The translations under genes and the position numbers were made by a program. From IMG/VR virus record IMGVR_UViG_3300027741_000025, positions 80,364 to 144,363 of that record: a stretch of 64,000 bases of DNA; one strand, written 5' to 3'. Below, one piece after another: positions 3,934 to 64,000 of this stretch. The notes below the pieces were generated by a model. The model searched no databases, was not told the origin of the DNA, and saw only the letters and a list, made by a program, of their open reading frames with translations. Each line of letters opens with the position of its first letter. The stretch's first letter is position 1. Source of the stretch: a virus.

Positions 3934-3980
3934 GATAAATTATATATTAATATTATACAATTTTTATCATAGTTAATAAT

Positions 3981-9146: not shown

Positions 9147-9192
9147 AATTATAAATTATATAGTTTTTATCCGATTAATTGTCAAAAAGACT
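8620..9192. repeat. Copy 1 of ~550-bp direct duplication (partner 12524-13096)
   Basis: Long identical runs such as ttgtagttttcgttgtatggaacaagatctttt and tgtgtttatctcaaacccaggttcacccaaagctaaaatcggattagcatcataccactcttga. Confidence 0.95.
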
Positions 9193-9207
9193 AGCCTCTG
9201 CCTGCTA

Positions 9208-10461: not shown

Positions 10462-13065
10462 TTATGTTAAATAACCTTGTAATTGAATATCACTAATTTT
10501 TCCTAAGAAAAAAGTAGTAGAATTAACACCATCAGTAACGCCATATCTATTTGAGCTATCTGTAACAGATATCTTATAGTAAAAATAAGAGTCTGGTGAT
10601 GCTATGGCAAAAGTTGCCGAAGAACCAACTTCAACAAGGGTTCTGGTATCGAGCAGCGTCCATGAGTTAAATGTATTGGCTCCATATACTTTGAATGAAT
10701 ACTTTACCGGAGCGCCGGTAATGTTATCAAAATCAGCCCACATTTTATATGATGTTAATATTATTGGATAGTCAAATCCAAGATATCCATCTTTTGTTCT
10801 GTTTGTTGGCACCCCATTGGCACTACTTGCGACTTCAAAACTCCATTGACCTAGCTTAGCTAGATTTCCAGTTAAGCCAAGAATTGTTCCCATATTAAAT
10901 ACAGTACCAAAGGAATCAGAGTTTGTCAAAACACCAGAATTATTAAGATATTTAACTGTTGGTAATAATGTGTTGTATCCATGCAATGCACAAGGTGTTG
11001 TTGTGCTTTCATATCCCCAAAGCTGAATTTCACCAATTTGAGTATCATAATTACAGAGACCGAGTGTTGCTGTTGGTGTTGGAGTTTTGGTTGGTGTTAG
11101 AGTTTTAGTTGGTGTTGAAGTTTTAGTTGGTGTCGGTCCAGGCAATCTAGTTGTTGTTGTTGGTGTTGTTGTTGGTGTTGTTGTTGGTGTTGTTGTTGGT
11201 GTTGGCGCAAGGGTTTCTGTTGGATCGGGTGTTGAATCAGGTGGTGTTGGTCCCAAACATCTATAGCCATTTCTTCCCCCTGTAGAAATAACAAGTTTAT
11301 ATACTTTATAAGCTACAGGCGCCGGTATTGTGAATTCAGAGTAACTACTCAAACTTGGATCTGTTGATGTTGCATATGGCAATCTTGGTTGATTTGATCT
11401 GGTGTCAACTACATTCCAAGATATTTCATCGTTACTACCATGCAGCGTCCAAGCTTGCGGAGTTTGATTACCAATATCTACATATCTGCCTTCAACACCA
11501 TAATTAGCTAAAAATCCATTCCACATTCTATACTTTGTTACTACAGTTGGAATTCTAAAATCAAACAAAAATATTGGGAAAGAATTATTACTAAAGCTAT
11601 ATGAATCGCTTAACACATATTGAAGAGGAAGTTCACCATTAAGAATACAGGCATTGGCGGGATTTACTACAGTATTAAAATACTGTCTGTAGTCAGGATT
11701 TATTAATATTGGTGGATTGTATTTTACTCCACCACCAACCAACGCCCTAGGCGTGCCAGGCGCTGCTGTTAGCGTTGGTGTTGCTGTTGGACCAGGTGTT
11801 TTTGTTACTGTTGGTGTGGGCGTTACTGTTGGTCTGAGTGTTGCAGTCGGTCTAGGTGTTGCTGTTGGACCCGGCGTTTTGGTTGCCGTCACCGTTGGTG
11901 TTGGACCAGGTGTTTTAGTTAATGTTGGTGTTGGACCAGGTGTTTTAGTTAATGTTGGTGTTGGACCAGGTGTTTTAGTTAATGTTGGTGTTGGACCAGG
12001 TGTTTTAGTTAATGTTGGTGTTGCCGTGGGTGTTGCTGTTGGTCCAAGTGTAGCTGTGGGTGTTGCTGTTGGTCCAAGTGTAGCTGTGGGTGTTGCTGTT
12101 GGATAATAACAAACATCTATATTTGCTGTAAATGATCCGCTATTATCACCTCTTACATTATCGTTTGTTGCAAGGTAAAGTCTACCTGCTCCGACAGCAA
12201 AAGATTCAAAAGAAGACCCAGCACAAAACGGTTGACCGCTTAACCCTATTTTGGCAATAATTGCCTCATGTCTACATGGGCTTATAACATTGTCGATATT
12301 GTATAAAGAGTTTGGTAACTGGGCATCCGTTAGTCCATCCGGATCAGAATTATAGTTCGGGCTGTTCATGAACGAATTTACTATTCCGGTTGCATTTATT
12401 TTTAAGTAACCAGAAACATCAATTTCACTATCTTGCCAGGGTATAGTAGGATCAATAATAAACGATTTTTGGCAATAAGGAGTTGATGTTGGTGTTGGTG
12501 ATATTGTGGTAGGACAACAAGAACAATTGCATATAGGCTTGGGTTTTGTACACTCTACCAAACTATCAATTGCAAGCTTGAGCCCTGTACCTTTTTCTAC
12601 TCTTATTACAACAGTATTGTTGCCATCTACTATATCGCAAGCATAGTTGTAGTTTTCGTTGTATGGAACAAGATCTTTTGATCTTTTGTTCCATTCTTCA
12701 AGGTTATTTTGGAAGTAAAATCTGACATCTTTTGATACCGGGCAAGATAATCCACAAAGATCAAAGTGTCCGAATTTGTTTGGAATTTGATCGAGAGAAC
12801 CAGCGCCATAGCAATCTTCCCAAGATATAAATATCGTATTGACACCTGGTGTTGGCTCTGGCGTTGGCTCTGGCGTTGGCTCTGGCGTTGTGAGCGTACA
12901 ACAAGACACGTAATCGAGATCGTTCCAACTTTTAGTTCCATTGCCGATTTTTAATCTTCCTGTGTTTATCTCAAACCCAGGTTCACCCAAAGCTAAAATC
13001 GGATTAGCATCATACCACTCTTGAGAAGTTCCATTTCTTAATTGTATTTGCTTGAATATTGTCAT
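10462..13065 (-). CDS. Fibre protein: Mtd_N, shared module, LecA/PA-IL-like lectin, PT stalk, two discoidin-like domains
   Basis: Mtd_N motif; PWQDSEI...[19 protein letters not shown]...DNSGSF; [14 protein letters not shown]. Confidence 0.75.
11890..12105. repeat. 30-bp in-frame tandem repeats (PT stalk)
   Basis: gttggtgttggaccaggtgttttagttaat x4 plus gtgggtgttgctgttggtccaagtgtagct x2. Confidence 0.9.
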
Positions 13066-13096
13066 TATAAATTGTTTGCTTAATTGTCAAAAGACT
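12524..13096. repeat. Copy 2 of ~550-bp direct duplication (partner 8620-9192)
   Basis: Near-identical DNA; carries extra 12-bp PTPE units. Confidence 0.95.
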
Positions 13097-13766
13097 TAAG
13101 TTTAGCTTCTACTTGTTTGTGGGCTATTTCAATCTGTTTATACCTTGTTAATAATCTATCTTTGGCTATTCTATCGTTGGTGGCATCAATTTGAGTTTTA
13201 AGTAAGTTTAATTCACCCAACTTTTTATTTAAATCCTCCATCACATCGACATATTTTAAATCTCTTTCCGAAAGCCAATTGATGGAGAGTTTATCCTTTA
13301 TTCCATCTTTTAATTCGATGTAAACGAAATCACCTTCTCTTTTTACAAAGAGTCCTTTTTTTTGTTCTGTTCCTTCTTTGTTTGTCCAAACATGATTCTT
13401 TTTTGGCTCAACGTATTTACCTCCACCAAGACTAGATCCGGAATCATCAAAAGAAATCGGACCATTTTTATTTTTTTTCATTGCTTGTTTTAAAACTGCA
13501 GCAGCACCAAGACCCAAATTAGTCAATAGACCAAAAACACTTTCTTCACATTTAAACTCGGGATGCTCAGCTTCTAAATATTCTTTGAATGTTTTTCTTT
13601 TTTTGTTTGGTAGCCCTTTATGCTTAGTAGAAGCAAAATCTTTTGCATCTTTTTTGTTGATATTATCTGCAACTTTTTTAATTTTTGGACTCAAACATTC
13701 GCCTGTTTTTTGACATTTACGAACTAATCCGAAAAATCTTTGTTGAGATTTACTTTTACTGGGCAT
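13080..13766 (-). CDS. DUF3008-like N-terminus fused to an SHD1 (SLA1 homology domain 1)-like domain
   Basis: [13 protein letters not shown]...[13 protein letters not shown]; HVWTNKEG...G.FV...[11 protein letters not shown]....[12 protein letters not shown]. Confidence 0.7.
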
Positions 13767-13835
13767 TTGATATCCTTTTATAAATTTAATTACTTAAATA
13801 TATATAATAACAACACTATTAAATAATGGAACAGC

Positions 13836-14222
13836 ATGAAATCATTCAAATTATTCTCAGAGAAAAAAGACAACGATCTTGCAAAAAATGATATTCATAA
13901 AATAATAGAATATAGCAAAAAATTACAAGAAATCATCAAAACCAACATAGAATTAGAAGATTGGGTTAAAGCTAAATTAACCCATGCCGAAGACTATCTT
14001 AATACAGTATATGATTATTTGATGTTTTATAAGCAAGATAATAAAAACGAAAACTCAAAAATGGCTGTGGGAGACCTAAAAAGTATATTGTATAAGGCTA
14101 TAGAAATAGAAAAGCTTTTAAATAAAAAAGATATAAAAGATTGGGTTAAGGCTAAATTAAACTTGGCTGGTGAGTATATGGATGATATTTTCCACCACTT
14201 AGACTATAATAAAAACAAATGA
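13836..14222 (+). CDS. Conserved large-phage protein with an internal duplicated helical motif
   Basis: DWVKAKLTHAEDYL and DWVKAKLNLAGEYM. Confidence 0.65.
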   Translation: MKSFKLFSEKKDNDLAKNDIHKIIEYSKKLQEIIKTNIELEDWVKAKLTHAEDYLNTVYDYLMFYKQDNKNENSKMAVGDLKSILYKAIEIEKLLNKKDIKDWVKAKLNLAGEYMDDIFHHLDYNKNK

Positions 14223-14671
14223 AACCAGAAAAAGTAGTATTTCTTGATATTGACGGTGTTTTAAACACCGATAAGCATTTAAGAAAATTTGGTCGAGATT
14301 ATATTGACCAAAAATTGACTTCGATACTAAGAACTATAGTGCTTCAAACAAAAGCAGAAATAGTACTTAGTTCAACGTGGAGGTTAGATGAGTATGCAAA
14401 AAATTTAGTTAAAAAAGCTCTGGAGATCAAAGATTTAAAGTTTATATGCTGTACACCGCATATTGAAAGCACAACAAAAAAAAGAACACACAGATCAGAA
14501 GAAATCAAAAAATGGCTTGAAAAACACAAAAGTGTCAAAAAATACGCAGTGCTGGACGACAGAGATGACGCAGGCTATGGAATTGAAAAAAGTTTTTTTC
14601 AAACAGATCCCAGAGTAGGCTTAACTTATTCAATAGCAGAAAAAATAGTGAGTCATTTAAATGATGACTAA
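14219..14671 (+). CDS. HAD-family phosphatase (Swiss-army-knife RNA-repair type)
   Basis: VFLDIDGVLN, IVLSSTWR, R.EEI..WL, YAVLDD. Confidence 0.85.
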   Translation: MKPEKVVFLDIDGVLNTDKHLRKFGRDYIDQKLTSILRTIVLQTKAEIVLSSTWRLDEYAKNLVKKALEIKDLKFICCTPHIESTTKKRTHRSEEIKKWLEKHKSVKKYAVLDDRDDAGYGIEKSFFQTDPRVGLTYSIAEKIVSHLNDD

Positions 14672-15795
14672 AAGCCTATTTTAGGCTTTTCTTCTTTTTT
14701 GGAGTAATTTTCTTCTTCGTTGTATATCTCAGCCAAAGTCATAGGAACATCTGTTTTTCTCTTAGACTTCATGCTTTTAAATATTTTATTGCAATTTTCA
14801 GGAGACAGAACATCAAATTCATGCTCTATTAAAAGCCTGCCTTTTCTCACAAGAGCTGAATCTATTTTTTCTTTGTTTATATTGAACGTTGCGATTATTA
14901 AAATATTTAAACAATCTCCAAGAACACCATCAGTTATGTTTAATATGTTGCTTATCGCATTGTTATCCTGATTCTCTCTGCTCCTTAAAGCTTTTTCGGC
15001 ATCCTCCAACAAAAGTATGGAGTTTCTATAGCCCATTATAAAGCTTAAAAAATCAGGATTAGTCAGTTGATCGGCAGAGCCAGAAGACAAATAGATTACT
15101 TTTCTATCTGTTTTGGTTGTCAAATATTTTATGAAAGTACTTTTACCAGTACCTGGCTTACCCGATAATAAAACCAAGCCATTTTTATTTTTCTTTGTAT
15201 AATCAATTATTTTATCAAACTTATCAGAAGCAGATTTTCCATAATTTAATTCCAGGTCTATTTTTTTATCTGGAAGCTTCACTTCAAACTTTTGTGTTGT
15301 AAGCATTCCATCCAAGCTACAAAGCAAATAGACATTTTTTTTCTTTTTATCTTCTGCCAAGAACTCCATACATTCTTTGACTTTATTTAAGGTTTCTTCT
15401 TTTTGATAAAGTATCTTGCAATTATAATTTTTGAAATCTTTTTTATTTATATTGACGTTTGATTCAACGTCATCAGCCTCCGACCCATCCAGAAAGAAAT
15501 CTATTTTGTTAATTAAATCTTTTTTGCGAAAAAATTGAATTACCAAATCTTCGTATTCATAGCAAGACTCTATATTGTTTATTTTATTTTTTCCATTATC
15601 ACTTTTTTCTAAATCAAAAGTGAACACCTTGACTGCACCTAACTTCTCAAGATTTTTAAAAGTTGCCTCGCCTATATCTGCGATAATTTCAAAAACATAA
15701 GGCTGTGCTTGAAATTTTTCACAATAATTATAAAAGATATTTAAATAAGTTCCATAATCGTGCGGTGGCGATTTTTTACAGTAACTGTTTTTCAT
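14668..15795 (-). CDS. AAA+ ATPase
   Basis: Walker A GKPGTGKS, Walker B LLLEDAE, SRH IDSALVRKGRL, C-terminal KIGF. Confidence 0.9.
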   Translation of the reverse strand: MKNSYCKKSPPHDYGTYLNIFYNYCEKFQAQPYVFEIIADIGEATFKNLEKLGAVKVFTFDLEKSDNGKNKINNIESCYEYEDLVIQFFRKKDLINKIDFFLDGSEADDVESNVNINKKDFKNYNCKILYQKEETLNKVKECMEFLAEDKKKKNVYLLCSLDGMLTTQKFEVKLPDKKIDLELNYGKSASDKFDKIIDYTKKNKNGLVLLSGKPGTGKSTFIKYLTTKTDRKVIYLSSGSADQLTNPDFLSFIMGYRNSILLLEDAEKALRSRENQDNNAISNILNITDGVLGDCLNILIIATFNINKEKIDSALVRKGRLLIEHEFDVLSPENCNKIFKSMKSKRKTDVPMTLAEIYNEEENYSKKEEKPKIGF

Positions 15796-15818
15796 AATAT
15801 CCTCGAAAGTTGATCCGA

Positions 15819-15827
15819 ATTATACCA
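15819..15827 (-). promoter_or_regulatory. Extended -10 promoter for the AAA+ gene
   Basis: TGGTATAAT on the minus strand, GAGGA SD before the ATG. Confidence 0.55.
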
Positions 15828-15861
15828 GAAAAATTATTCAAAATCCACTAATAATCTCATT

Positions 15862-15895
15862 AAAAAAAAAGTCTGCCTCTTTTAAGGAGGCAGAC
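15862..15895 (-). terminator. Intrinsic terminator
   Basis: GTCTGCCTC / 7-nt loop / GAGGCAGAC stem followed by 9 U on the minus strand. Confidence 0.85.
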
Positions 15896-16039
15896 CTATT
15901 CATACACACAAAGAAAGAGGCAGATGTGTTATGAACTGCGGACGTTTAGCTCATGGTTAAAGCCGACTACCTTCCGCTGAGTCACCGTTTCTGCTGGACA
16001 GACGACAGCAGCAGCACATACACGGTAAGTTTTTATCAT
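15862..16039 (-). ncRNA. Candidate structured small RNA or leaderless 36-aa ORF transcript
   Basis: Bounded by its own promoter and terminator, GC-richer than background, two internal stems. Confidence 0.45.
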
Positions 16040-16045
16040 CCAACC

Positions 16046-16073
16046 AACATACCACAGAAAGCATCAATGTCAA
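16046..16073 (-). promoter_or_regulatory. Sigma70-type promoter
   Basis: TTGACA, 16-nt spacer, TG-n-TATGTT on the minus strand. Confidence 0.7.
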
Positions 16074-16106
16074 GTTTCATCTTCGACGCTTGGTACATTT
16101 GTACTA

Positions 16107-18965
16107 TTAAATAAAAAATAAATCAAGGTATTCTTTGAAAGAGACATTTTCATCCATTGCTTTAGCGGCGGCGTTAGCTATAAGCCTGTTGATCTCACTA
16201 TCAATTTCTTGCATTTTCTTTTGTGCATCAATGATCTTTTGTATTGTTTCTTCATCAACCTCTTTTTCTTGATATTCTTTTCTGTATCTTTGAATAAGCT
16301 CGGCTAACTTTCTCTTTTTCTGAACAATTACAAAAAGCTCTGTGTCTAAACCCTTAGCTATTGTGTAGGTTATATTTACTGGGTGCTCTGTGTTTATTCG
16401 GTAGATTCTTCCCTCGCTTTGTTCAGCAGACTCAGGAGTCCAGTCAAAATCGTTTATTATCATGTTTTGACTGGCGTTTGGAAAGCTTATTCCAGTTCCG
16501 CCCATCTTCATACTCATAACCAAAGCTTTGGCATTTGGGTCATTGGTAAAAACTTCTTTGACTTTATTTCTTTCCGCTTTTTTGGTTAAAGATAAATAAG
16601 TAATAACTTTGAATTTTGGATCAAGATCTTGTAATTTTTTAGATAGCTTTTCGAATATTTCACTTCCTGCTTTTACAAAGTTTGTAAAGATAACAACTTT
16701 GCTGGCTGCGTAATTGTTGGCGGGTTTGTCTAAATTTCTTTTTATTGTCTCAAAAGCCTTATTGACTGTGTAATCCACCTTCATATTAGCTAAAACTTCT
16801 CTACTGGCGATTAATTCACTTATAGCCAAATCTGGATCTTTATATCCTTTGAGCTTTTCTTTTAACTTCTTATGAAAATCTTCTTCGTGTATATCAGTTG
16901 AAGCAGCATCTATGCTTAAATTTGGCATCTCTCTTAAATCTTCTTTGGTGCGCCTCACATAAACGCCAGAGAGATTGAGCCACTTGTTTAGTTTTTCTGC
17001 AGCTCTTATTCTGTCCTCAAAACTTCCTTCTGTGTAAGCCCCTCTATAGCCACCAGGAACCATACCCGCAAAATCTCTTTTGAACTTGCCGTCTTGTATG
17101 TCTCCAAGAGGATGTCCGACAATCTTCAATTGATTTTTTACGTCAGAAGGTCTGTTTGCACTTATTGTTGCGCTTGCGCCCCATTTATACGGAATATTTT
17201 TTGTTGCTTCTTCAATGTTTTGACTTCTTTTTGCTGTTTGGTGTTTTAGCTTGTGTAGTTCATCAAATATAACTATTGAATAGTTAGCGTTCTTGGTTGA
17301 ATTGATTACATTTTGAAGATTCTTGCCACTTGAGAAATTGTCGTAATATAAAACAGTCCAGCGTTTTGGATTTGTGCCATCCTTGGATACGTCAGCGTTT
17401 TCTCCAACAACATCTTTGATTTCTTCTACCCATTGATTTTGAACTGCCTTTAAAGTTATCACAAGTGTTTTTGAATTAGATCCAACATCTTGCATCCTCA
17501 ACTCGGCAGCAGAAATCATCTGCACCGTTTTGCCCACCCCAGTGGCATCACCAAGTATTGCATGATTTCTTCCATACAAAAAGGCTATGCCATCTTTTTG
17601 CTCTTTATAAAGCTCGAATTTAGATTCAGGCAATCTTGAGTCTATCTTTTCTTTAAAGTCTGCGTCTACTTTTCCTTCTTGATCAGCTCTCTTGACTCCA
17701 CCATTTTTCAGCTTATTGTCTAATATTGCTCTAAGATCTTCAACATGATAGCCAAACCTTTTTAATATTTGCCCAAACGTAGCATACTGTTTGAAATTAC
17801 CAGAAACTACATAAGAAAAGTTTTTATCATCCCATCTATAAGATGGAAATGTGTATTGAATCAACTCCTTTAGAAATGCTTTTTGATCCTGAGAAGCTTC
17901 TCTGTATGGAACGCTTATTGTCATAACATCATCAACGCCGCCTCTTCTATCTGCGAAAGATATTATCGGTTTACTGGTTTTTATTTGCTCTGATTTCTTT
18001 TCAAAAGAAATTTCTTTTTGACTCTCCCCAGAGAATAATTCATTTTCATCTACAAATTTATCTAAATCGGTAACATCTATTCCGCCACCTACTAATTTAC
18101 TTTTAACAGCATCGTATAAATCTTTGCTATCTGCTGCTATCAAAAACTTAGGAGGTCTTGTTGAACCATCAAAACTATACCCTCTTGGAACAAGGCTGGC
18201 GCTTCTTGCAGAATCTAATATTGACTTGCTTTGATCAAAAGAAACATTTAGTTGTATTGCTATTTTTTTACCAAACCTGGTGTCTTGTATTCCGACAACA
18301 ACCAGCTGTTTCTTTTCAGAAATAGGAGTTTTTTCTTCAGAGCCAACAGGAGATCCCGAGACCTTGGTTGATATACTCATTTCTCCCGAAATCAGCTTTA
18401 CAACATCGTCTATCACCTCTGGGTGAATGTAATATGTATTTAATTGATTTCTATCTGTGTTAAAAAACTTAAACACAGGATACTTCATCGCACCATAGTT
18501 ATCCCTCACCTTGACCAGCTTTTTCTTTTCAACAATAAGATCAGAAATTTTTGTCATTAGCTTTTTACTAATTCCACCTGGAACATAAACTTTAATTTTA
18601 CCCCAGACTCTTTCTGCATCTGTGTGGATTACTATTTCTTGATGATCATCCATTTTTAAACTAGATTTGATATCATTTTCCACAGCCTTCTTTATATCTT
18701 CATAATTTGAAATTTGTGTATTTTTATAACGAGAAAGAATGGTAAGCATTCTGCTAGCTGTAGCCAATGGTATTGAATCATTGTGAAAATTAGGATCACC
18801 GACAATTGCTTTGTATGCTCCAAAATCTATTTTGTTGAACCCAGTGAAATCATCTACAACAGGAGCGCCTCTTTCAAACATATCGTGAAACGTAGTTTTT
18901 AGTAGATCTATTCCCGGACCCGACACAAGGTTTTCTTTATTTTCTAAGAATGATGTAAATTTCAT
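16107..18965 (-). CDS. SNF2/SWI2-family helicase-like ATPase with long N-terminal extension
   Basis: ILGDATGVGKT, IFDELHKLK, SAT, GGTGISF, FDWTPESAEQSEGRIYRI. Confidence 0.9.
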   Translation of the reverse strand: MKFTSFLENKENLVSGPGIDLLKTTFHDMFERGAPVVDDFTGFNKIDFGAYKAIVGDPNFHNDSIPLATASRMLTILSRYKNTQISNYEDIKKAVENDIKSSLKMDDHQEIVIHTDAERVWGKIKVYVPGGISKKLMTKISDLIVEKKKLVKVRDNYGAMKYPVFKFFNTDRNQLNTYYIHPEVIDDVVKLISGEMSISTKVSGSPVGSEEKTPISEKKQLVVVGIQDTRFGKKIAIQLNVSFDQSKSILDSARSASLVPRGYSFDGSTRPPKFLIAADSKDLYDAVKSKLVGGGIDVTDLDKFVDENELFSGESQKEISFEKKSEQIKTSKPIISFADRRGGVDDVMTISVPYREASQDQKAFLKELIQYTFPSYRWDDKNFSYVVSGNFKQYATFGQILKRFGYHVEDLRAILDNKLKNGGVKRADQEGKVDADFKEKIDSRLPESKFELYKEQKDGIAFLYGRNHAILGDATGVGKTVQMISAAELRMQDVGSNSKTLVITLKAVQNQWVEEIKDVVGENADVSKDGTNPKRWTVLYYDNFSSGKNLQNVINSTKNANYSIVIFDELHKLKHQTAKRSQNIEEATKNIPYKWGASATISANRPSDVKNQLKIVGHPLGDIQDGKFKRDFAGMVPGGYRGAYTEGSFEDRIRAAEKLNKWLNLSGVYVRRTKEDLREMPNLSIDAASTDIHEEDFHKKLKEKLKGYKDPDLAISELIASREVLANMKVDYTVNKAFETIKRNLDKPANNYAASKVVIFTNFVKAGSEIFEKLSKKLQDLDPKFKVITYLSLTKKAERNKVKEVFTNDPNAKALVMSMKMGGTGISFPNASQNMIINDFDWTPESAEQSEGRIYRINTEHPVNITYTIAKGLDTELFVIVQKKRKLAELIQRYRKEYQEKEVDEETIQKIIDAQKKMQEIDSEINRLIANAAAKAMDENVSFKEYLDLFFI

Positions 18966-19011
18966 AAAATTATCTAGTTGAATATAGCTAATATTTTGTT
19001 AAAATATATCA

Positions 19012-19602
19012 ATGAACTTAAAAGATACAAAGATTGAAAAAATACTGATAAACGGTGTTTTTAAGAAGTTTTATCACATTTTGATAAGAAAAGATGAGTA
19101 TAAAATCTGTGTGGATTGCGCCTGCAACATGTGGGCAAATGAAAAGGATGGATCAAAACTAAACAGAGGTCTGCTGAATTCAGCAAAAGACCCATATCGA
19201 ACCGAAAGAATTGGTAGGCTTTGTGAAATGGGCTTTGGAAAGCTATTTGATATGTCGATAGACACAGAATACAAAAAATTCGGAGATACTATGGATTTTT
19301 TGTATAAAGAAAATAAAATAAATGTAAAAGGGGCGGCAAGATACCCCGATTGGGAAGCAGGTTTGGTCTTAGCTCGGGACAATAAAGGCAGAAAGTCTGA
19401 GTTGAAGCAGGACATCTATGTTTTCGGATACATGAAAAATGAAAACAAAGAACAAGAACAAGCAAATATGGTCTTAGTCGGATACCAGACCAGAGAGTTT
19501 ATACTCAATCTGTTGCCAGTGCCAGCCAGAAGAGAAGATCACTACAACTACGAAGTTCCTTACCATGATTTGCTTTCCATAGAAGCTCTAGAATCGATTT
19601 AG
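19012..19602 (+). CDS. Hypothetical protein, possible PD-(D/E)xK nuclease fold
   Basis: G..CE.GF...DTMDF.....INVKG spacing. Confidence 0.45.
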   Translation: MNLKDTKIEKILINGVFKKFYHILIRKDEYKICVDCACNMWANEKDGSKLNRGLLNSAKDPYRTERIGRLCEMGFGKLFDMSIDTEYKKFGDTMDFLYKENKINVKGAARYPDWEAGLVLARDNKGRKSELKQDIYVFGYMKNENKEQEQANMVLVGYQTREFILNLLPVPARREDHYNYEVPYHDLLSIEALESI

Positions 19603-19925
19603 AAGTATGGATTTTTCGTAAAGCTCTTGAACATACTTTTAAATTCTTTTGCACATTCGCTTTTAACTCGTTCAAAGTCTTTTACGCATTCACTTTTAAT
19701 TTTTTTGATATCTACGTCAAGATAACCAAGAATACCAAGCTTAACATCTGGGAATTCTTCTTCTGATTGATTCTCTTCTTCCCTAAGCCGAGCATAGTAT
19801 TGCTTGCTTCCGTTTGGATAGTTTCTATACAAGGGATAGAGTTTCTTTTCCTCGATCTTGAACTCTGAGAGAGCGCTGTTATCTCCCGCAAGAGCTTCAA
19901 GAACACCATCGAATTCAAAATCCAT
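19599..19925 (-). CDS. Hypothetical protein
   Basis: GAGGAG SD and TATACT upstream of the ATG (MDFEF...). Confidence 0.6.
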   Translation of the reverse strand: MDFEFDGVLEALAGDNSALSEFKIEEKKLYPLYRNYPNGSKQYYARLREEENQSEEEFPDVKLGILGYLDVDIKKIKSECVKDFERVKSECAKEFKSMFKSFTKNPYF

Positions 19926-20046
19926 GATTTTTCTCCTCAAGGAATACAGTATACGCTTTGCCTGACTTCAAAGAAATAGCGTACCACAAAGAAACTTCTT
20001 TCAATAAGTCTACATATAGTGGACACATATGTTGCAAGGAGCCGGG

Positions 20047-20502
20047 ATGAAAAACTTTCTATTCTTTTTATTGTCTGCTTCAATACTTGGATGTTCTGTA
20101 AGAGTCGATCAAAAACAAACATTCCCAAAACAAAATATGGAGAAAAAAGAAGGTGAATTCTCTTTGATTCTTTTAAATCTTCATAACAAAACAAGAGAAG
20201 AAAGGGGTTTAAAGACACTTTCGATAGATGAGGGTTTGATGGTATACGCTCAAAATCACGCAGACAAAATGCTATCCAAAGACAGTTTGACGCACTCTAA
20301 TATCTCATCCCTACTCTCCAACTATGATGGTTACGTTGGAGAAAATATAGCCTATGGTCAAAAAGACGAAGAGTCTGTTTTAAAAGCCTGGATGAACTCC
20401 TACACACATAGAGGCAACATATTGGGTTCTTATACTAAGGTAGGTTTTGGTGTTGCCAAAAAAGAAGATAAAGTATATTGGTGCGCCGTCTTTGCTAACT
20501 AG
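20047..20502 (+). CDS. CAP/SCP-domain lipoprotein
   Basis: Lipobox ILGC; LHN..R, AQ.HA..M, GENIAYGQ, WMNS..HRGNIL, YWCAVF; AGGAG SD. Confidence 0.9.
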   Translation: MKNFLFFLLSASILGCSVRVDQKQTFPKQNMEKKEGEFSLILLNLHNKTREERGLKTLSIDEGLMVYAQNHADKMLSKDSLTHSNISSLLSNYDGYVGENIAYGQKDEESVLKAWMNSYTHRGNILGSYTKVGFGVAKKEDKVYWCAVFAN

Positions 20503-27048: not shown

Positions 27049-30000
27049 ATGACATCAACAACTCCAATATCCGGTAATTTATTCGTTTGTGGGTATAATC
27101 GTACCCACCAACTTGGATTGCCCGATATTTGGAGCTCCTACTTTAGTTTATTAAAAACCAGTTCTGATCGATGGATAGATGCTGCTGCAGGCGGAACATA
27201 TTCGATTGCAATCCAAGAAGATGGCACTCTATGGGGAACCGGTGGTCTCCCAGGATACTCTGGGACGATTGGATTGGGAAGAACAACAACTGAAAGCTTT
27301 ACCTTAATCAACACAAAAAAATGGGTTAGTGTGGCTGCCGGTGTAAACCACACTATTGCTATACATGATGATGGAACACTGTGGGGCACCGGCACTAATG
27401 TTAACGGTCAACTTGGCTTGGGAAACACTAATAATGTTGATGAATTTACAAAAATAAGTAGCGACTCATGGATAGGTGCTGCTTGTGGCGCCACACACAC
27501 ACTTGCTATACGCAGTGACGGAACATTGTGGGTAGCAGGAGTGGGTTTTGACGGTCAGCTTGGGCTTGGTAACAGTGTTTCTACAACCTTTGGATCATTT
27601 GTGCAAATAGGAACAAGCAAGTGGAAAAGTGTGACTGCAAATTATATGAGGACAGTTGCAATACGCAGTGATGGTACTTTGTGGATCACCGGAGCCGGAT
27701 TCTCATCAAGGTCATATGACTTTATACAAATCAGTGAAAATACATGGGATAAAGTTCGTTGTAGCCTAGCTGTAAATCGTGTCGGGTGCGTTTTTGCAAT
27801 TCGTACCGATGGAACATTGTGGTGTTTTGGAGAAGGCGGAACTCTAGGTCTGGGTGATTACAACCGCCGCGACTCATTGACGCAAGTTGGTAATAACACA
27901 TGGAAAGATGTTAGTTGCCACAACAGTCACACCATGGCAATCAGAAGCGATGGAACACTATGGGCTACAGGAAATAGTTCGAACGGCAAGCTTGGTGCCG
28001 GGAGCGTATCTTTAAACCAATATTTAACTTTTATACAAGTGGGAACTTATCTTGATAATTATTGGTCAAAAGTAGTTACTGGTCCAAATCACACATTGGC
28101 GATTTCTCAACTGCCGCCGGCTCCAACACCTCCACCAACACCTGAGCCTGATACAGGAACTCCAAAAAATGGTTATTTATTTTCTGTGGGTTTTAGCCGC
28201 ACAAGCAAATCAATAACTAGTCCGTTTTCAGGACTAGGTAAAGATACAAACCAGTCTTATCTTTCGCAAATTGGAGCGGATGAGTGGGTAAGCATTTCTA
28301 GCGGTTTTGGACACACAGCAGCTATAAAAGCAGACCGAACACTTTGGACAACTGGTTATAATGAATTTGGACAATTGGGTCTTGGAGATAAAATAAACAG
28401 ATCTTCTTTTGTTCAAGTTAGCGCAGAATCTTGGTTGAAAGTGGCGACAGGAAACGCAGCAACATTTGCAATAAGGAATGATGGGACGCTTTGGGCAACT
28501 GGCGACAACCGAAATTTTCAACTTGGACTTGGCGATAATGAAAATAGGAAGAGTCTTACACAAGTCGGAACAGATTCTTGGGTTGATGTTTCATCTGGCG
28601 ATGGTCATACAATTGCTATTAAAAGTGATGGAACGCTTTGGGGGGCAGGATGGAACCAAATGGGGGAATTAAGTCTCACCGACGCAGATGGCAATCCAAA
28701 ATTATTTTTTCACGCAAGAGTTATGACTAAAATTGGCAATCAAACATGGAATTATATTTCAGCTGGTGGTAGGTTCATCATAGCAATCAGAAGCGATGGA
28801 ACATTGTGGGGATCAGGAGCCAATTCTTCAGGACAGCTTGGGCTTGGATTTAAAGATTTTAGTAAGACGACTTTAACTCAAATCGACAACGGAGTTTGGT
28901 CGAAGGTAGCTGCGGGTTTTTACAACACCTTTGCTATAAAAAACGATGGAACTCTATGGTGTGCTGGGGGTAATACATTTGGGCAACTCGGACTTGGCGA
29001 TAAAACAGATCGTGCTCGTTTAACTAAAATTGGAGTTGATTATTGGAGAGAAGTATATAATTACTGGGTAAACACCTTCGCCATCAAAGCAAATAAAACT
29101 CTTTGGATTTCCGGAGACAATAGGCTGGATGCTGACGGCGACCCTTACGGACTAATTCTAAATGGTGTAGATCGATCTTCTTTCAACCAAGTTGGAGTTG
29201 GCTGGACGAAGGTTTCTGGGAACAATAGGTGCATGTTGGCATTAAAAGAAAACATACCAACACCAACTCCAACTAATACACCGGGACCAACAGCCACACC
29301 AACTGCAACAAAATTTAAGATAACACCTACACCAACAACTACGCCCACCAAGACACCCGGACCAACAGCTACACCGACCGCTACAGCTACACCAACAAAG
29401 ACACTTGGACCAACAGCTACACCAACAAAGACACTTGGACCAACAGCAACACCAACAAAGACACTTGGACCAACAGCTACACCAACAAAGACACTTGGAC
29501 CAACTCCAACTCCTACTGTTAAAAATATTTCAAAAACTGCTCCTCCAACAAGAATTATATTTAAAAATTACACACAATTAGAATGGTATGATTCCAATCC
29601 CATATTAGCTGTTGGAGAAGCTGGTTATGAAAATGATGCTGGCGGTTTGAAATTTGGCGATGGAGCTAATCGTTGGAGAGAACTTCCTTACAGTTGCCAA
29701 AGAGGTGGATGTGTGGTTTCGACGCCAACTAACACTGCTACACCAACAGCTACACCAACAATAACAGCTACACCAACAATAACAGCTACACCAACAATAA
29801 CAGCTACACCAACAATAACAGCTACACCAACAATAACAGCTACACCAACAATAACAGCTACACCAACACTAACTGCTACACCAACACTAACTGCTACACC
29901 AACACTAACACCAACACCAACACTAACTGCTACACCAACACTAACTGCTACACCAACACTAACTGCTACAGCCGCAAACGAATACTACTGTGTTAGGTTT

Positions 30001-30927
30001 AGAACAACACAAACACCTACACTAACCAATACGGCTACTCCTACACCAACTAATACGGCTATAATAACTTCTACGCCTGCAATAACTTCTACGCCTGCAA
30101 TAACTTCTACGCCTGCAATAACTTCTACTCCAGCACCAACTCCTGGACCACATGCTGCTGATTTTATAGTAATAAATTATAATTATCCATCTGAGCTAGA
30201 TTTAAAAACTGATACAATTATCGATTATCCTGATGAAATTGGAAGAATAACTGCAGGTTCTTGTCGTATTATATTTGGAGAACCGGATATTAAAAGAGGG
30301 CAAATGATCTGGGGTGGGGCACCTGATGATGGAATTGATTCTTATCTTATAAATGTTAATAGCATATTTGTCCCCAGTTATACTACATTTACTTTATGTG
30401 TTTTCGCTAGGGCATTTTGGTACGCTAATCCGGATCCCGAAGGATCTTTGATCAGAATAGAACTAACTGCTTATAAGGGTGGAGAAATGAGTAAAGAAGG
30501 AACTCATTGGATAAATACTGGCGGAGAAATAATTTCAAGTGAAGATAAGACATATAAAGTTGACGGACCAGAACAACCCACATGTGATGGTGATTTCCAA
30601 AACTTAGTGCATATTAAATATCACGATAATGGTTTTGGTGCAGGTGCTGGCGTTGCTGACTGGATGGATCCAAAGGATCCACTTAAAACTTGCTATCCTC
30701 CTTGTTCCGGGACTTGTACTTATCACTGCGACACAGATAATGGAGGAACTTGGCGTCTTTTAAATAGTAATTGTTCTCCTATCAGCTATTGTGATTGTCA
30801 TCCAACATTAGTGCCTGAATGGGTAACAGAATGCGATAATGGATATTGCGAAGCAGGGTACCATGATCTTTGTTATATACCATGTAGTGATGAGTTTGGT
30901 GGGCATAGTCCTTGGACAAAACCATAA
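27049..30927 (+). CDS. Fibre/adhesin-like protein: two RCC1 propellers, PT stalks, internal Mtd_N, ADFIV module, Cys-rich tail
   Basis: About 12 AI.sDGTLW.tG.N..GQLG repeats; [17 protein letters not shown]. Confidence 0.8.
29380..30130. repeat. In-frame 30-bp and 18-bp tandem repeats (PT stalks)
   Basis: acaccaacaaagacacttggaccaacagct x4; acaccaacaataacagct x6; ataacttctacgcctgca x3. Confidence 0.9.
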
Positions 30928-32975: not shown

Positions 32976-33224
32976 ATTATTATCAAATTCAATACTATAT
33001 AAATTGTTAATGGATCCCATTTTTTTTATGTTTTTTAATATGTGGCGCAGCAACAATCTGTTAGAAGTCCTCCAAGTGTAAATGTTACTTTAATAACGCC
33101 GGAGCCGCTGCAGGAGACTTCATGGTAACAAGAACCATCATAGTAATTAACTTCGCACGCCGACTTGCACTCGTCATCATAGCAAACTGTACTTGTCATT
33201 AGTGTGGCTGTTGGCGGTGGTGTA
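32786..33224. repeat. 183-bp inverted repeat formed by the 3' ends of two convergent genes
   Basis: Arms 32786-32968 and 33042-33224, 16 mismatches by manual count; a more diverged second pair lies at ~32255-32600 and ~33500-33845. Confidence 0.95.
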
Positions 33225-36200
33225 TTAGTCGGTATAGCAGTTGGTGTAGCAGTTGGTGTCTTAGCAGGCGTGGCAGCAGGAGTCTTAGTTAGCGTTGGTG
33301 TTGGTGTTGGAGTAAATGTTGGTGTTGGAGTAAATGTTGGTGTTGGTGTTGGTGTTGGTGTTGGTGTCTTAGTTAGTGTGGATGTTGGCGTGGATGTTGG
33401 TGTGGATGTTGGTGTGGATGTAGCTGTTGGTGTTGGTGTTTTGGTAAGTGTTGGAGTTGGTGTCTTGGTAGGTGTGGCTGTTGGTCCTGGTGTAGCTGTT
33501 GGGCAAGGCCCACCAACTACCGGATTGCTGAGCGACCAATAAACTTTATCTCCAAGTGCATTTCCACAACTACCGTCATATGTTGCAGAATTCCACGTTG
33601 CAGTATTTAGTGGGTTTGATGTTACCCAGGAAGAAGGAACAGATATTGTTTGACCTACAAGTCCGTTATAGCTTCCTGTGCCAGCAGTGACTGATCCCAA
33701 TTGTCCTTGTCCACACACATAACTTATTGTAATGGTGCCATTCGGCGTACAAAGATCATTATCAATTATAGTGCATGTCTTGTAGTATGTTCCACTTGTA
33801 GATGAAGATCCATCAAATGCCGAAAATCCTGGGCATACACATCCAGTAGCTGTTGGTGTTGGAGTTTCTGGTCCTGGTGTGGCTGTTGGAGTAGCTGTTG
33901 GCGGGGGCGTAACTGTTGGTGTTGGTGTTATTGCACCTCCACAGCAAAAAGTTATTCCGTCTATTTCATTTGCCAAATTTCCTCTTCCTAAGCAGACATT
34001 GGTATCTGAGAGGACTATGTATTCAGTCACATCTGTGTGGCAGCGACTTATTGGAGGACCAATTAAACACTTTAATTTAGATGCCATTGTCACACAATTT
34101 TGCTCAGACGGTATTAAATTAAGCCCAGCTATAGTTTCTTCTGGTATTGTCACCACTTGTACAGACAAAATTGCGCCGCAGTCCGGAACACAACAATAAT
34201 CGGCTTCACAAGAATATGGAGATGTTGCAACAATGTTAGGCGCATCTCCAAAAGAATTTAGATTTATTTCTTCTACAAAAATTTCTTTAGATTCATCCCA
34301 TGTGCCACCAACTAAGCCTCCAACATAAAAATCATATTTTGCCAAATCACATGCATGACAAGCAGAAAAAACAAACTTCAAATTACTAATGCATCCTGGT
34401 GTGGACGTTGGTCCAGGTGTTAGTGTTGGAGTAGCTGTTGGTTCAAGTGTTTCCGTAGGGGTGGCTGTTAGTGTTGGGGTAGCTGTTGGTCCAGGTGTTT
34501 CCGTAGGGGTGACTGTTAGTGTTGGAGTTGGAGTTGGTCCAAGTGTAACTGTGGCTGTTGGAGTTGGAGTTGGAGTTGGAGTCTTGGTTGGTGTAGCTGT
34601 TGGCGTCTTAGTTGGTGTGGGTGTAGATGTAGGTGTTGCTGTTGGTGTAGCAGTTAGTGTTGGTGTTGGTGTAGCAGTTAGTGTTGGTGTTGGTGTAGCT
34701 GTTAGTGTTGGTGTAGCTGTTAGTGTTGGTGTAGGCGTTGGAGTTGGGGTGGCTGGATTTGGCTCACACCAAACTTGACAAGTACAACTGCTTGTGCAGT
34801 GCTTAGATGAGTCATAAGATAGATTAGGACATCTGCATCCTGGATTGCAGCCATCTTTATCTACTGTATACACATCATCTATATCCCAATAATAATCACA
34901 CACTCCACACGGACCTGTGGTTGGTGTAGGCGTTGGTGTTGGAGTAACATAATATCCCATACAAAACTCATTGCTGTAGCACAAATATTTTGGCAAAATT
35001 GTGGCAGTTGGAGCTGGGGTGGTGGTGGGAGTAGCAGTTGGGGTTGGTGTTGGCAGTAATGGACAATAGGTAATAGAAGAATAATAATAACCGCTATTAT
35101 CTAGTACATATATGTCATTTGGTCTTAAATAAAGTCTGCCTGCGCCTGGACTTCCTGTGTAACTTGAACCTACTGAAAAAGGAGATCCAGATCCTATTCT
35201 TCCAATAAGTTTCATATGACACTCAGAAGGCATTGGAGAAACACCGCCAAAGTTAAAACATCTAAGACCTATAGGGGTAGTATCTCTATCTATTCCATCT
35301 GGATCTGCTATATCTCCGGCTTCGTCCCAAACTGCTGTTCCTGTAGAAGATATTGCTATCGTACATTCGGGGAGTACATCCACACCAGTATCTTGCCAAT
35401 CTCTGGCACAATCCACAGTGAAGTTTGTTGTTATTGTCCCAATATCCATTTTTTCAAAATTAATATAAGAAACAGGGGGAATAATGCTCGAAGAAAGTTT
35501 ATTTTCAATGTTTTCACATACCAATTCAGATTCGGAAACTGACAAAGAAGCCGGATTAGGAACTATCAATTGTGTCTCAGAGTCAAGATCTACAGATATA
35601 ATTTTACAACTACCATTTGCCCATTTCCACATATCATAACCCTTGGTTGGATCCATACCAAATCTTTTACTTGGTGGAAAAGTAGCATTCAATCCAGGCT
35701 CCCACTCCTTGGTCATGTCATCTAAAATTGTGTGAATTCCATCTGCTTTTAGCCCTGTGTTTATACCTACGGTATAGTATTTATTCCATATCAGAGCAGG
35801 ACCTATTACATCCAGAACAACTGTGCCCGTAAAGTTTTTTCCAGAATAAATAGTGAGTCTTGAACCAGAATATATGGCAATTGAGTCAAATGTTGTGTTG
35901 GCAGCATGATTAAAAGCTAAATTATTATCAGGATATTCTCCTATAGAAACATAATCATCTGCATCCAATTTACAATTTGTAGTATGATCATCAGCAAATT
36001 GAGGTCTTTCGTACCAGGTGCATAAAATATGATCGTTAAACAATGCCCCAGTAAAGTGAACATCTCTTGCCCCCAATTCAGGCTTAGGTGTCGGAGGTAT
36101 TACTATGCACTTTTGAGGACAAGCCATTCTAAAACAAACTTGACAATTAACATCAGATGTTACAGAAGGTGTGGATGTTGGCGTTGAGGTAGATGTTGGC

Positions 36201-37576
36201 GTTGAGGTAGATGTTGGCGTTGAGGTAGATGTTGGCGTTGAGGTAGATGTTGGCGTTGAGGTAGATGTTGGCGTTGAGGTAGATGTTGGCGTTGAGGTAG
36301 ATGTTGGCGTTGAGGTAGATGTTGGCGTTGAGGTAGATGTTGGCGTTGAGGTAGATGTTGGCGTTGAGGTAGATGTTGGCGTTGGTATTGGCGTTGAGAC
36401 GGGTATTAAAGATTTTATCGCCATTGTAAAAGCAGAACCAGGACCCACTAAAACCCATGTATCAGATCCTATCTGAACTGGGTCATATCGATCAGAGGTT
36501 GTATTGTCTCCAACTTGTCCGCTGGAGTTATATCCCCATGCCCATAGTGTACCATCACTCTTTATGGCAGTTCCGTGGTTCCAACCTACTCTTGCTGATA
36601 TCCAAGCATCGGATCCTATTTGTACAGGATGATCAACATAATAAGGGCTACTTATTCCATTTCCTAGCTGCCCTGATATATTAACTCCCCACACCCACAT
36701 TGTGCCATTATTTTTTAACGCCACACTATGTTCACCAACATGAGCATAAGCCGATTGCCAGTCGGAATCAGATCCTATTTGAACAGGCGAATACCTATCT
36801 ATGTTTGTTCCATCTCCAAGAGCCCGGGAACTATTTTTACCCCAAGCCCAGAGTGTACCATCACTTTTTATTGCAACGGTATAATTTCCCCCTGCACTCA
36901 CCAAATTCCAAGCATCAGATCCTATTTGAACAGGTGAGTGTTTTCCAACAGTAGTTCCATCTCCAAGTTGTCCGTATGTGTTATCTCCCCAAGCCCATAG
37001 TGTACCATCAGTCTTTACTGCAAGAGTGTGTTTAGCTCCAGTGGTCACAAAATTCCAAGCATCAGATCCTATTTTAATAGGCACAAGACTACCGGTGACT
37101 GTTCCATTTCCAAGATTTCCATGTGTATTATCTCCCCAAGCCCATAATGTTCCGTCATTTTTTATAGCAAGAGTGTGATTGTTTAGAAATTCACCTTTTC
37201 CAGTACTTGCCAATTTCCAAGTGTCAGATCCTATTTGAATAGGCACAAGACTATCAGTGACTGTTCCATTTCCAAGCTTTCCATGTGTATTATCTCCCCA
37301 AGCCCATAATGTTCCGTCATTTTTTATAGCAACGGTATAGCCATATCCTCCACTAACTGATGTCCAATGATATGATCCTATCTGAACAGGCGAATATCTT
37401 TCAGTAGTAGTTCCATCTCCAAGTTGTCCGTATGTGTTATCTCCCCAAGCCCACAACACTCCGGACGAATTGGTTTGTATTGATAAATCATTTTCAAGAT
37501 TAATAAAAGGCTTAGGTGTTGATTTTGCAACACTTTGATTTTTAGAAACTCTATGTATTTTCTTTATCTCAAACAT
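33035..37576 (-). CDS. Large fibre/adhesin-like protein: RCC1 propeller, PT stalks, LecA-like domain, several Cys-rich modules
   Basis: 7 [13 protein letters not shown] repeats; DWQDTGVDV...LIGRIG..PF.VG...[13 protein letters not shown]. Confidence 0.8.
36174..36384. repeat. Perfect 18-bp tandem repeat x11
   Basis: gatgttggcgttgaggta repeated with no mismatch (TSTPTS). Confidence 0.95.
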
Positions 37577-37606
37577 ACTTTATATATCAGTTATTAAACA
37601 AATAAA

Positions 37607-38251: not shown

Positions 38252-38294
38252 TTTTGATGTTTAATTTATATATGAAAAATTAATATATAAATAT

Positions 38295-40007: not shown

Positions 40008-40056
40008 TGAATTTTCCTAATTTAGGATTATAATATATATAAATTCCGAAATCAAG

Positions 40057-47419: not shown

Positions 47420-47941
47420 TTTTTCTTCCAATCTCTTCAAAGAATCTGCTTTTCTACCCTTTTCAGAAACAATCAAAAGATTGTCTTCTATTCCCCAATT
47501 TATGTTTATCTCAGGAGAGCTATAAATTAGAGACGGTTCTATTGATGGGTCATAAAAAGCATCCTGCATATAAACAACACTAGTGTTTTCTTCCAAACTC
47601 AAAAAGGCGTGCCCACAAAATTCAGGAATTAATAATTGAGTGTTGCTATTATCAAGAATTATCTTATAATGCTTTAAATAAGTTGGAGAATTTCTTCTTA
47701 AGTCTACACAGACATCTAAGATTTTGCCGGAAACGCATGTTACAAGCTTTTTAAAGGGAGCAACATGTATTCCTCTCAGAGAATATTTTTTATTGAAAGA
47801 GTAATTAACCTGAATTGGTTTAAAACTAACTCCTTTAAATACATTGGCATGAAATATTTCTTGGAAAAACCCTCTGTCGTCAAAATATTGCTTGTGCTCT
47901 AACACTTTGCAACCACTAATTTCTGTAGATTTCAAAAACAT
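47408..47941 (-). CDS. rmlC: dTDP-4-dehydrorhamnose 3,5-epimerase
   Basis: DDRGFFQE, LRGIH, KLVTCVSG.ILDV.VDLR..SPT, IPEFCGHAF.SL. Confidence 0.9.
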   Translation of the reverse strand: MFLKSTEISGCKVLEHKQYFDDRGFFQEIFHANVFKGVSFKPIQVNYSFNKKYSLRGIHVAPFKKLVTCVSGKILDVCVDLRRNSPTYLKHYKIILDNSNTQLLIPEFCGHAFLSLEENTSVVYMQDAFYDPSIEPSLIYSSPEININWGIEDNLLIVSEKGRKADSLKRLEEKLFV

Positions 47942-52318: not shown

Positions 52319-52777
52319 ATGTTAAAAATAAATTTCAAATATTTTCTTGAATCAGAAGAAAAATCAAACTTAGAAAAAACAATTTCAAGATTGCCCAAGA
52401 AACATAGAGAGCTTATCCATAACTACAAATTCAAATATAAAGACAAAACAACATTGGACAAAAAAAATGTAGGGTTGTTGTGTGGAGATAAAATTGAGAT
52501 AGCCGGAGGCTGGAACTACAGCAAAGAATTCGTAACTCTACACGAGATAGGACACGTTGTTTGGGAGAAATTATCTTCTTCAGAAAAACACAAGTGGAAA
52601 GATCTGTTGTCTAAAACAATAGATGATCAAAAAAAGAAAGCGGATAAAGTTAGCAAATCATCTTTAGATCAAAATCCCGAAGAAATATTTGCAATGACAT
52701 ATGCGTGTGCATATTCAAAACACCCATCGCATTATTTTTATAACAAAAAATGGATTAAATTTGTGAAGTCGATTTAA
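52319..52777 (+). CDS. HExxH zinc metallopeptidase-like protein
   Basis: TLHEIGHVVW and NPEEIFA third-ligand motif. Confidence 0.7.
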   Translation: MLKINFKYFLESEEKSNLEKTISRLPKKHRELIHNYKFKYKDKTTLDKKNVGLLCGDKIEIAGGWNYSKEFVTLHEIGHVVWEKLSSSEKHKWKDLLSKTIDDQKKKADKVSKSSLDQNPEEIFAMTYACAYSKHPSHYFYNKKWIKFVKSI

Positions 52778-52797
52778 ACATGTAAACTACCCAGCCC

Positions 52798-63274: not shown

Positions 63275-63306
63275 GATATTATATAGTCACCAATCAATAA
63301 AAATTA

Positions 63307-64000
63307 TTATATACAGGGGACATTGCAAGAAAAACAATCTGCTGCATCAGAACATCCTCCACCGCTTTGGGCAGTTGTGTTCACAAAATTATCTGATGGA
63401 CAGTTGCATTGGGGATCGCAGTTATTAGATGAAAATTGCCATTCATGGAAGGTTCTACTATAGCCATAGGTGCAATAGCCGCATGGATTTTCAACACAAC
63501 TATAATTTTCGCAATGATAGTTTGGTTGGGTGCATCCACAAGTTCCTCCGCAACCGTCTGGCAATCCGCAATATCCATCGCCATTAGAATTACCGCAATC
63601 TTTTTGGCAACATGATGAATAAGGTCCAGGATTTCCGGCACAATCCGGACAATCAAATGTGTAGGTTGCAGTAGCACCTAATGTTGAGCAACATCCCCAA
63701 TAACCAAGACCAGGAATATTTGGAGCTTTATTAGCACAAAATACATTTTGAGGACAACGAGAAGAACTTGCGCTAGCTGCACCCCAAACTAACCGAGCTC
63801 CACTATTTATACATGTTAAGACAACTGAGCACTGTGGGCATCCCGTGTCGGGTGTCGTCTCTGGTGTACCCGGTGTTGTACCCGGTGTTGTATCTGGTGG
63901 TGTACCCGGTGTTGTACCCGGTGTTGTACCCGGTGTTGTACCCGGTGTTGTACCCGGTGTTGTATCTGGTGGTGTACCCGGTGTTGTACCCGGTGTTGTA
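63307..64000 (-). CDS. Partial (5' end outside window) Cys-rich protein with TTPG repeats, same fibre family
   Basis: The reading frame appears to continue upstream of the tracked ORF through 12/15-bp repeats; very Cys-rich C-terminus. Confidence 0.65.
   Translation of the reverse strand, partial: TTPGTTPGTPPDTTPGTTPGTTPGTTPGTTPGTPPDTTPGTTPGTPETTPDTGCPQCSVVLTCINSGARLVWGAASASSSRCPQNVFCANKAPNIPGLGYWGCCSTLGATATYTFDCPDCAGNPGPYSSCCQKDCGNSNGDGYCGLPDGCGGTCGCTQPNYHCENYSCVENPCGYCTYGYSRTFHEWQFSSNNCDPQCNCPSDNFVNTTAQSGGGCSDAADCFSCNVPCI
63862..64000. repeat. 12/15-bp in-frame tandem repeat
   Basis: gtacccggtgtt units interspersed with gtatctggtggt. Confidence 0.9.

Follow-up and report, generated by a model that had tools for sequence, protein, structure and literature searches.

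Between an SNF2-type helicase gene and an AAA+ ATPase gene of an uncultivated huge phage lies a 264-base cassette that carries its own promoter and its own intrinsic terminator and that is absent from the nearest relative compared. This cassette is likely a real transcription unit, and we tentatively favor an orphan, stand-alone, non-coding phage small RNA (sRNA) as its product—a reading that we place somewhat short of probable.

The window (i.e., the whole stretch of DNA analyzed, 64,000 bases) comprises bases 80364–144363 of a 144,363-base IMG/VR virus record, which CheckV estimates to be 29% complete and which thus represents a fragment of a huge phage. The record has a G+C of 35% and, by a simple greedy ORF call, is ~94.7% coding and 5.3% non-coding, with only 13 non-coding gaps of at least 150 nt in its 144 kb. 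The cassette sits in a 311-nt non-coding gap (window 15796–16106) between the helicase and AAA+ genes that has the highest G+C (0.40) of these 13. The cassette body itself reaches 0.46, against ~0.30 in its flanks and 0.35 genome-wide, though this value is only the 92nd percentile among all windows. The features of this region, apart from the hairpins given further on, are as follows.

16107–18965, minus strand: SNF2-type helicase gene, 952 aa (Pfam SNF2-rel_dom and Helicase_C; PHROG 62)
15852–16115, minus strand: whole cassette, 264 bases, with no counterpart in the relative L044 (blastn, junctions read)
16046–16073, minus strand: sigma-70-type promoter of the cassette, read from the sequence
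15862–16039, minus strand: predicted transcript of ~175–178 nt, inferred from promoter and terminator geometry
15929–16039, minus strand: ORF36, 36 codons, starting at the predicted +1 (leaderless) and lacking a Shine-Dalgarno sequence
15862–15897, minus strand: intrinsic terminator (11-pair stem, 7-nt loop, nine T)
15819–15827, minus strand: extended -10 promoter TGgTATAAT of the AAA gene, beyond the terminator and not part of the cassette
14668–15795, minus strand: AAA+ ATPase gene, 375 aa (Pfam AAA)

Over 1,300 metagenome relatives of the AAA protein exist, a number of them on contigs as long as 363 kb; the two nearest are P0001 (90% identity) and P0002 (86%), and distant relatives occur in jumbo phages, e.g., PA5oct. 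Adjoining the AAA gene is a gene with a HAD_SAK_2 domain (“Swiss Army Knife” RNA-repair HAD domain; window 14219–14671, plus strand). Elsewhere in the window, RCC1-like repeat propellers build two very large proteins (27049–30927, plus strand, 1292 aa; 33035–37576, minus strand, 1513 aa), the first of which contains an internal Mtd_N (major tropism determinant N-terminal) domain that is also found in an 867-aa fibre-like protein (window 10462–13065). Other unusually long non-coding gaps occur at window 47420–47891 (472 nt) and 52399–52797 (399 nt), both without an Rfam match, and at G000:C1:9418–10066 (649 nt).

The boundaries of the cassette emerge from comparison with L044, a 45.8-kb metagenome contig that was the closest relative compared (blastn, query window 13000–20000). 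Homology to L044 runs over window 19361–16116 at 85% DNA identity and resumes over 15851–14655 at 81%, with nothing between. At the position of the cassette, L044 instead holds an unrelated 696-nt insert with a 174-aa ORF, in which we found neither a Pfam match nor a terminator. As L044 lacks the cassette and carries another insert at the same site, the cassette represents a discrete, moron-like unit, and the presence of that different insert points to replacement rather than pure addition. The slot downstream of the helicase gene in fact differs in every relative examined: the 174-aa ORF in L044, a 138-aa ORF in L002 and a tRNA-Thr gene in L005. The last of these, a tRNA-Thr(UGU) gene (L005:6832–6903), lies directly downstream of a helicase gene whose product is 54% identical, so this variable slot can carry RNA genes. 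A second swapped cassette is apparent nearby, where L044 has a LAGLIDADG homing-endonuclease gene (L044:5122–5946, minus strand) at the position of the HAD_SAK_2 gene.

No sequence or structure conservation of the cassette was found in the relatives compared. Searches with blastn in distant mode gave no match in phage and plasmid collections; synteny via the helicase led to four loci, with the cassette in none, and synteny via the AAA protein to 38 viral loci, of which the closest 18 (L006–L023) were inspected and held nothing similar to it. The whole records of four relatives and 313 kb of related loci (nhmmer and blastn) were likewise without a match, and a metagenome scan for relatives returned L044 only, which lacks the cassette. 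When exact and gapped DNA patterns of the cassette were sought in viral and prokaryotic contig collections, two matches appeared and both were chance: CTGCTG-rich coding sequence within a 593-aa ORF of a Chitinophagales MAG (L045) and a TCTGCC simple repeat (L047).

A slot whose content changes from relative to relative, a cassette that the nearest of them lacks, conservation found nowhere among the searches made, and a differing G+C that suggests foreign DNA would all suit a functionless relic. The cassette would then be a recombination leftover, in which the terminator ends the helicase transcript, the promoter is orphan or spurious and the short transcript is inert. We consider this possible, on the unlikely side. 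Useless DNA is rare in a record that is 94.7% coding, and L044, which has no terminator after its helicase gene, indicates that this gene needs none. The promoter, described next, also argues against decay, being the best of its class in the record.

On the minus strand, the cassette promoter comprises a -35 box TTGACA (16073–16068), a 16-nt spacer and an extended -10 box TGgTATGTT (16054–16046), exactly as an initial annotation of this DNA had read it. The A of the ATG at 16039, which that annotation had taken as the transcription start, falls on the seventh base past the -10 box and is the predicted +1. In 144 kb there are five matches to TTGACN-N12-15-TGNTANNNT, where Markov shuffles predict 1.9; four of the five fall in the non-coding 5.3% of the record, and the three intergenic ones besides the cassette promoter lie 25–38 nt upstream of small genes with Shine-Dalgarno sequences. 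Enriched, intergenic and placed ahead of three small genes, this appears to be a working promoter class in the phage, and the cassette promoter is its best match—the only one with the full TTGACA plus the TG extension. A perfect palindrome, GTACAAATGTAC, lies at window 16093–16104, past the helicase stop codon and ahead of the -35 box, and may be either an operator or a chance occurrence.

The terminator that closes the unit, proposed earlier as a 9-bp stem, is present and measures 11 pairs (six of them G–C) at 15897–15869, followed immediately by nine T to 15862. Strict intrinsic terminators number only four in the 144-kb record, three of them intergenic, and this is one of the four. Promoter and terminator together predict a transcript whose 3′ end falls in the U-tract (~15864). 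We estimate roughly a 0.02 chance that any of the five promoters would lie no more than 250 nt upstream of any of the four terminators on the same strand. The pattern of the promoter class, the rarity of strict terminators and the discreteness of the cassette lead us to infer that a real transcription unit is likely. A second autonomous promoter–gene–terminator module of like design occurs at G000:C1:26807–27228 (window coordinates -53556 to -53135), where a TTGACT...TGgTAAATT promoter precedes a 100-aa ORF by 38 nt and another of the four strict terminators (GCCCCT...AGGGGC, then T6) closes the module.

In the minimum-free-energy (MFE) fold of the predicted transcript, three hairpins precede the terminator hairpin.

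15982–16028, minus strand: hairpin 1, with outer helix UUACCGU/ACGGUGA and inner helix GCUGC/CAGCAG
15938–15977, minus strand: hairpin 2, with outer helix GCGGA/UCCGC and a weak inner helix
15898–15936, minus strand: hairpin 3, with a 14-nt apical loop

This fold reproduces the stems drawn in the initial annotation (UUACCGU/ACGGUGA with CUGCUG/CAGCAG inside it, and GCGGA/UCCGC), leaves the first 11 nt of the transcript unpaired, and exposes in hairpin 3 a CU-rich apical loop of 14 unpaired nucleotides (15924–15911, UCUGCCUCUUUCUU). That loop contains the upstream copy of the motif TCTGCCTC, which occurs only once more in the 144-kb record. The description of the unit as structured, however, fails for the RNA body: the whole transcript is more stable than its shuffles (z = -3.36) because of the terminator, whereas the 142-nt body without it (z = -1.14; 27 of 200 shuffles equally or more stable) folds no better than shuffled sequence, a point in favor of the relic. 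The suggested Infernal/Rfam search did not place the RNA in a family either: no Rfam 15 family reached its gathering threshold anywhere in the window, and with the limit relaxed to E = 10 the top match scored 20.8 bits against thresholds of at least 43. Two further candidates were set aside, namely a tRNA-like reading of hairpin 2, whose loop lacks U33 and for which ARAGORN found no tRNA or tmRNA in the cassette, and a CRISPR repeat or toxin–antitoxin repeat, given that only an 8-nt motif is present twice, without an array.

The initial annotation had offered two readings of this unit, of which one was a leader-peptide attenuator that controls read-through into the AAA+ gene. In such an attenuator, translation of ORF36 would switch the RNA between two folds and thereby set the read-through. 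The arrangement invites it, with an ORF ahead of a terminator just upstream of a same-strand gene, an 11-nt segment complementary to the 3′ side of the terminator, and a weak Rfam alignment to Thr_leader (19.6 bits vs. a gathering score of 55; E = 0.31). The complementarity itself stands, as 15924–15914 (TCTGCCTCTTT) pairs perfectly with 15882–15872, but the competition with the terminator that had been read into it does not. The segment is a near-copy of the terminator 5′ arm, sharing with it the motif TCTGCCTC, and the three T that follow this motif pair with three A of the terminator loop. Because it copies the 5′ arm, its partner is again the 3′ arm, and the RNA would still end in a hairpin and a U-tract; we therefore rejected it as an antiterminator. 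Forcing the alternative helix also costs 8.4 kcal/mol (-47.0 vs. -55.4 kcal/mol for the unforced fold), its ensemble pair probability is ~0 while the terminator pairs stand at 0.94–1.0, and no upstream segment pairs with the terminator 5′ arm.

The genomic context argues in the same direction. Past the terminator, the AAA gene has a promoter of its own (TGgTATAAT, 15827–15819), followed by a GAGGA Shine-Dalgarno sequence and then by its ATG at 15795. This promoter region is conserved, lying within the homology block common with L044, which lacks the cassette and has the version TGgTAGGAT. Among the 18 AAA loci inspected from more distant relatives, 16 (including L006–L017 and L020–L022) have the AAA gene behind a divergent gene of ~600 aa, with its start in a divergent intergenic region that lacks the cassette. 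In ORF36, moreover, AAA-VV is the only run of one codon type and no regulatory codon forms a run; the gene that would be regulated encodes an ATPase rather than being biosynthetic. Given the separate promoter and Shine-Dalgarno sequence of the AAA gene, and given that L044 and the distant loci do without the cassette, the latter is not an AAA leader or attenuator. As far as sequence can decide, the AAA gene does not depend on the cassette, and the attenuator reading is largely refuted, such that we now think it very improbable. The other option of the initial annotation, a novel phage sRNA, survives as the best reading on the logic of the sequence.

A more serious rival to the sRNA concerns ORF36. 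The open frame 16039–15929 encodes the 36 amino acids that the initial annotation had quoted, and the 36-aa peptide might be the product of a leaderless micro-protein gene, whose RNA might also act as an sRNA (i.e., have a dual function). An ATG placed 7 nt after the -10 box and followed by 36 open codons has a rough joint chance of ~1%, a figure calculated post hoc, and the unpaired first 11 nt of the transcript would suit leaderless initiation. The phage at large also gives some reason to entertain it. Several of its genes have a TATATAAT-like box 0–8 nt upstream of the start and no Shine-Dalgarno sequence, and a Shine-Dalgarno-like motif precedes only 56 of 156 phage genes, so this phage may normally use very short leaders or none. 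TATATA(A/T)T-like boxes at this distance from starts without Shine-Dalgarno sequences are seen in many short, often divergent, intergenic regions (window 3934–3980, 9147–9207, 13767–13835, 20219–20260, 37577–37606, 38252–38294, 40008–40056 and 63275–63380), and they may represent a promoter specific to the phage whose transcripts have a very short leader or none.

The properties of ORF36 itself nonetheless speak against a protein. Its codon score (-0.254 per codon) falls below all 3000 in-frame windows sampled from the genes of the phage and also under the worst whole gene, and its GC3 is 0.43 vs. 0.27 in phage genes—though odd codons would also be explicable if the cassette is foreign DNA. 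A phmmer search of 1.84 billion protein representatives gave no match, weak evidence in that the library omits uncalled small ORFs, even ORF36, and six-frame tblastn against phages and related loci was equally negative. The peptide scores 1252 in a protein language-model atlas in which 91% of known-family proteins reach 2300, a value typical of shuffled sequences, and it has no transmembrane segment or recognizable motif. Furthermore, the other three promoters of the class have normal leaders with Shine-Dalgarno sequences, whereas the cassette contains no ORF led by one. In view of the caveats on foreign DNA, the library and short leaders, we keep the leaderless micro-protein as a live rival and judge it improbable.

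What sets the sRNA ahead as a reading is the combination of an autonomous unit, a gene-type promoter class, a rare strong terminator, no ORF led by a Shine-Dalgarno sequence, and atypical codons. Promoter and terminator are both present and correctly ordered; against it stand the lack of any homologue in the searches made, the nearest relative compared without the cassette, the z-score of -1.14 for the RNA body and the absence of an Rfam match. Should the sRNA reading be correct, host-type RNA polymerase would start at ~16039, at the TTGACA/extended -10 promoter of an autonomous moron-like unit in the variable slot between the SNF2 helicase and AAA+ ATPase genes, and would stop ~175 nt on, in the U-tract (~15864) of the strong intrinsic terminator. 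The resulting ~175-nt RNA would consist of three hairpins plus a terminator hairpin with a long U-tail, and the terminator and tail would give it stability. If such an sRNA acts, it would most likely do so by base-pairing in trans. As candidate seed, the CU-rich 14-nt single-stranded loop of hairpin 3 (UCUGCCUCUUUCUU) would bind purine-rich stretches resembling Shine-Dalgarno sequences in mRNAs of the host or the phage, and the likeliest action would be translational repression of these mRNAs at their ribosome-binding sites. A duplex scan against 156 phage translation-initiation regions, run without a shuffle control, yielded loose, loopy, low-specificity pairings only.

A bolder version of the sRNA model may be built on the two copies of UCUGCCUC, one in the 14-nt loop and one in the terminator stem, whose arm reads CCUCCUUA. 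The RNA would then act as a mimic of the 16S rRNA anti-Shine-Dalgarno end, blocking or titrating ribosome-binding sites early in infection and possibly doubling as a leaderless mRNA for the 36-aa peptide. We regard it as a long shot.

The position of the cassette between two replication-type ATPase genes, one encoding an SNF2 helicase and the other an AAA+ ATPase that some sources call DnaC-like, raises a last alternative, that the transcript is a primer or R-loop RNA of a replication origin. The cumulative GC skew, however, shows no turn at the cassette, and we found no iterons or AT-rich unwinding element there, the G+C being above that of the flanks. The transcript is also predicted to be efficiently terminated, and the nearest relative compared (L044) lacks the cassette, all of which leaves an origin transcript highly improbable.

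If the cassette is transcribed as an sRNA gene, its product would join the small number of sRNAs known from huge phages as a further orphan, and it would show that the variable, moron-type slots of such phages can harbor genes for RNA alongside those for protein. For now, the cassette is a lone, unconserved candidate that opens no long-standing question.

Bacterial trans-acting sRNAs, e.g., RNAIII and RsaE/RoxS, pair C/U-rich loops with Shine-Dalgarno regions. The predicted cassette RNA resembles these in having a C/U-rich apical loop with CCUC and a terminator hairpin with a long U-tail, a resemblance of design only, with no homology and no Rfam match. Leader-peptide attenuators (trp, thr and his leaders; Rfam RF00506 and similar) have in common with the cassette a small ORF, a terminator and a same-strand gene downstream. 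Unlike them, the cassette has no antiterminator or regulatory codon run, its downstream gene has its own promoter, and its Rfam score against these families is far below threshold.

The marks of a phage moron are a dedicated promoter and terminator, an unusual base composition and the lack of a counterpart in a relative (PMC3594210). Like the gene 15 element of HK97, one of the morons of tailed phages, the cassette is extra DNA between conserved genes that is absent in a close relative, with a promoter and terminator of its own (in silico in the case of the cassette) and a G+C unlike that of its neighbors. Classic morons, in contrast, carry a protein gene that is expressed from a repressed prophage and benefits the host, whereas the cassette has no convincing protein gene and belongs to a huge, probably lytic phage, and L044 has a different insert at the site rather than nothing. 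Lacking a convincing protein gene, the cassette is “moron-like” rather than a moron in the strict sense.

The closest parallels are the sRNAs of giant and jumbo phages (201phi2-1, phiKZ, PA5oct; PMC11512511, PMC8244752, PMC7318152), which, like the cassette, are short start-to-terminator units in intergenic gaps of densely coding large genomes. Their 5′ and 3′ ends were measured and one of them is conserved across genera, whereas the cassette RNA is predicted only and has no detectable relative; a search of the phage collection found no sequence similarity between it and these sRNAs. In the transcriptome of the giant phage 201phi2-1, sRNAs were defined as a transcription start and a termination site within 250 bp, which gave 11 sRNAs, three of them intergenic (PMC11512511). 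As sRNAs of the same architecture are thus already known from 201phi2-1, the candidate described here is not new in principle.
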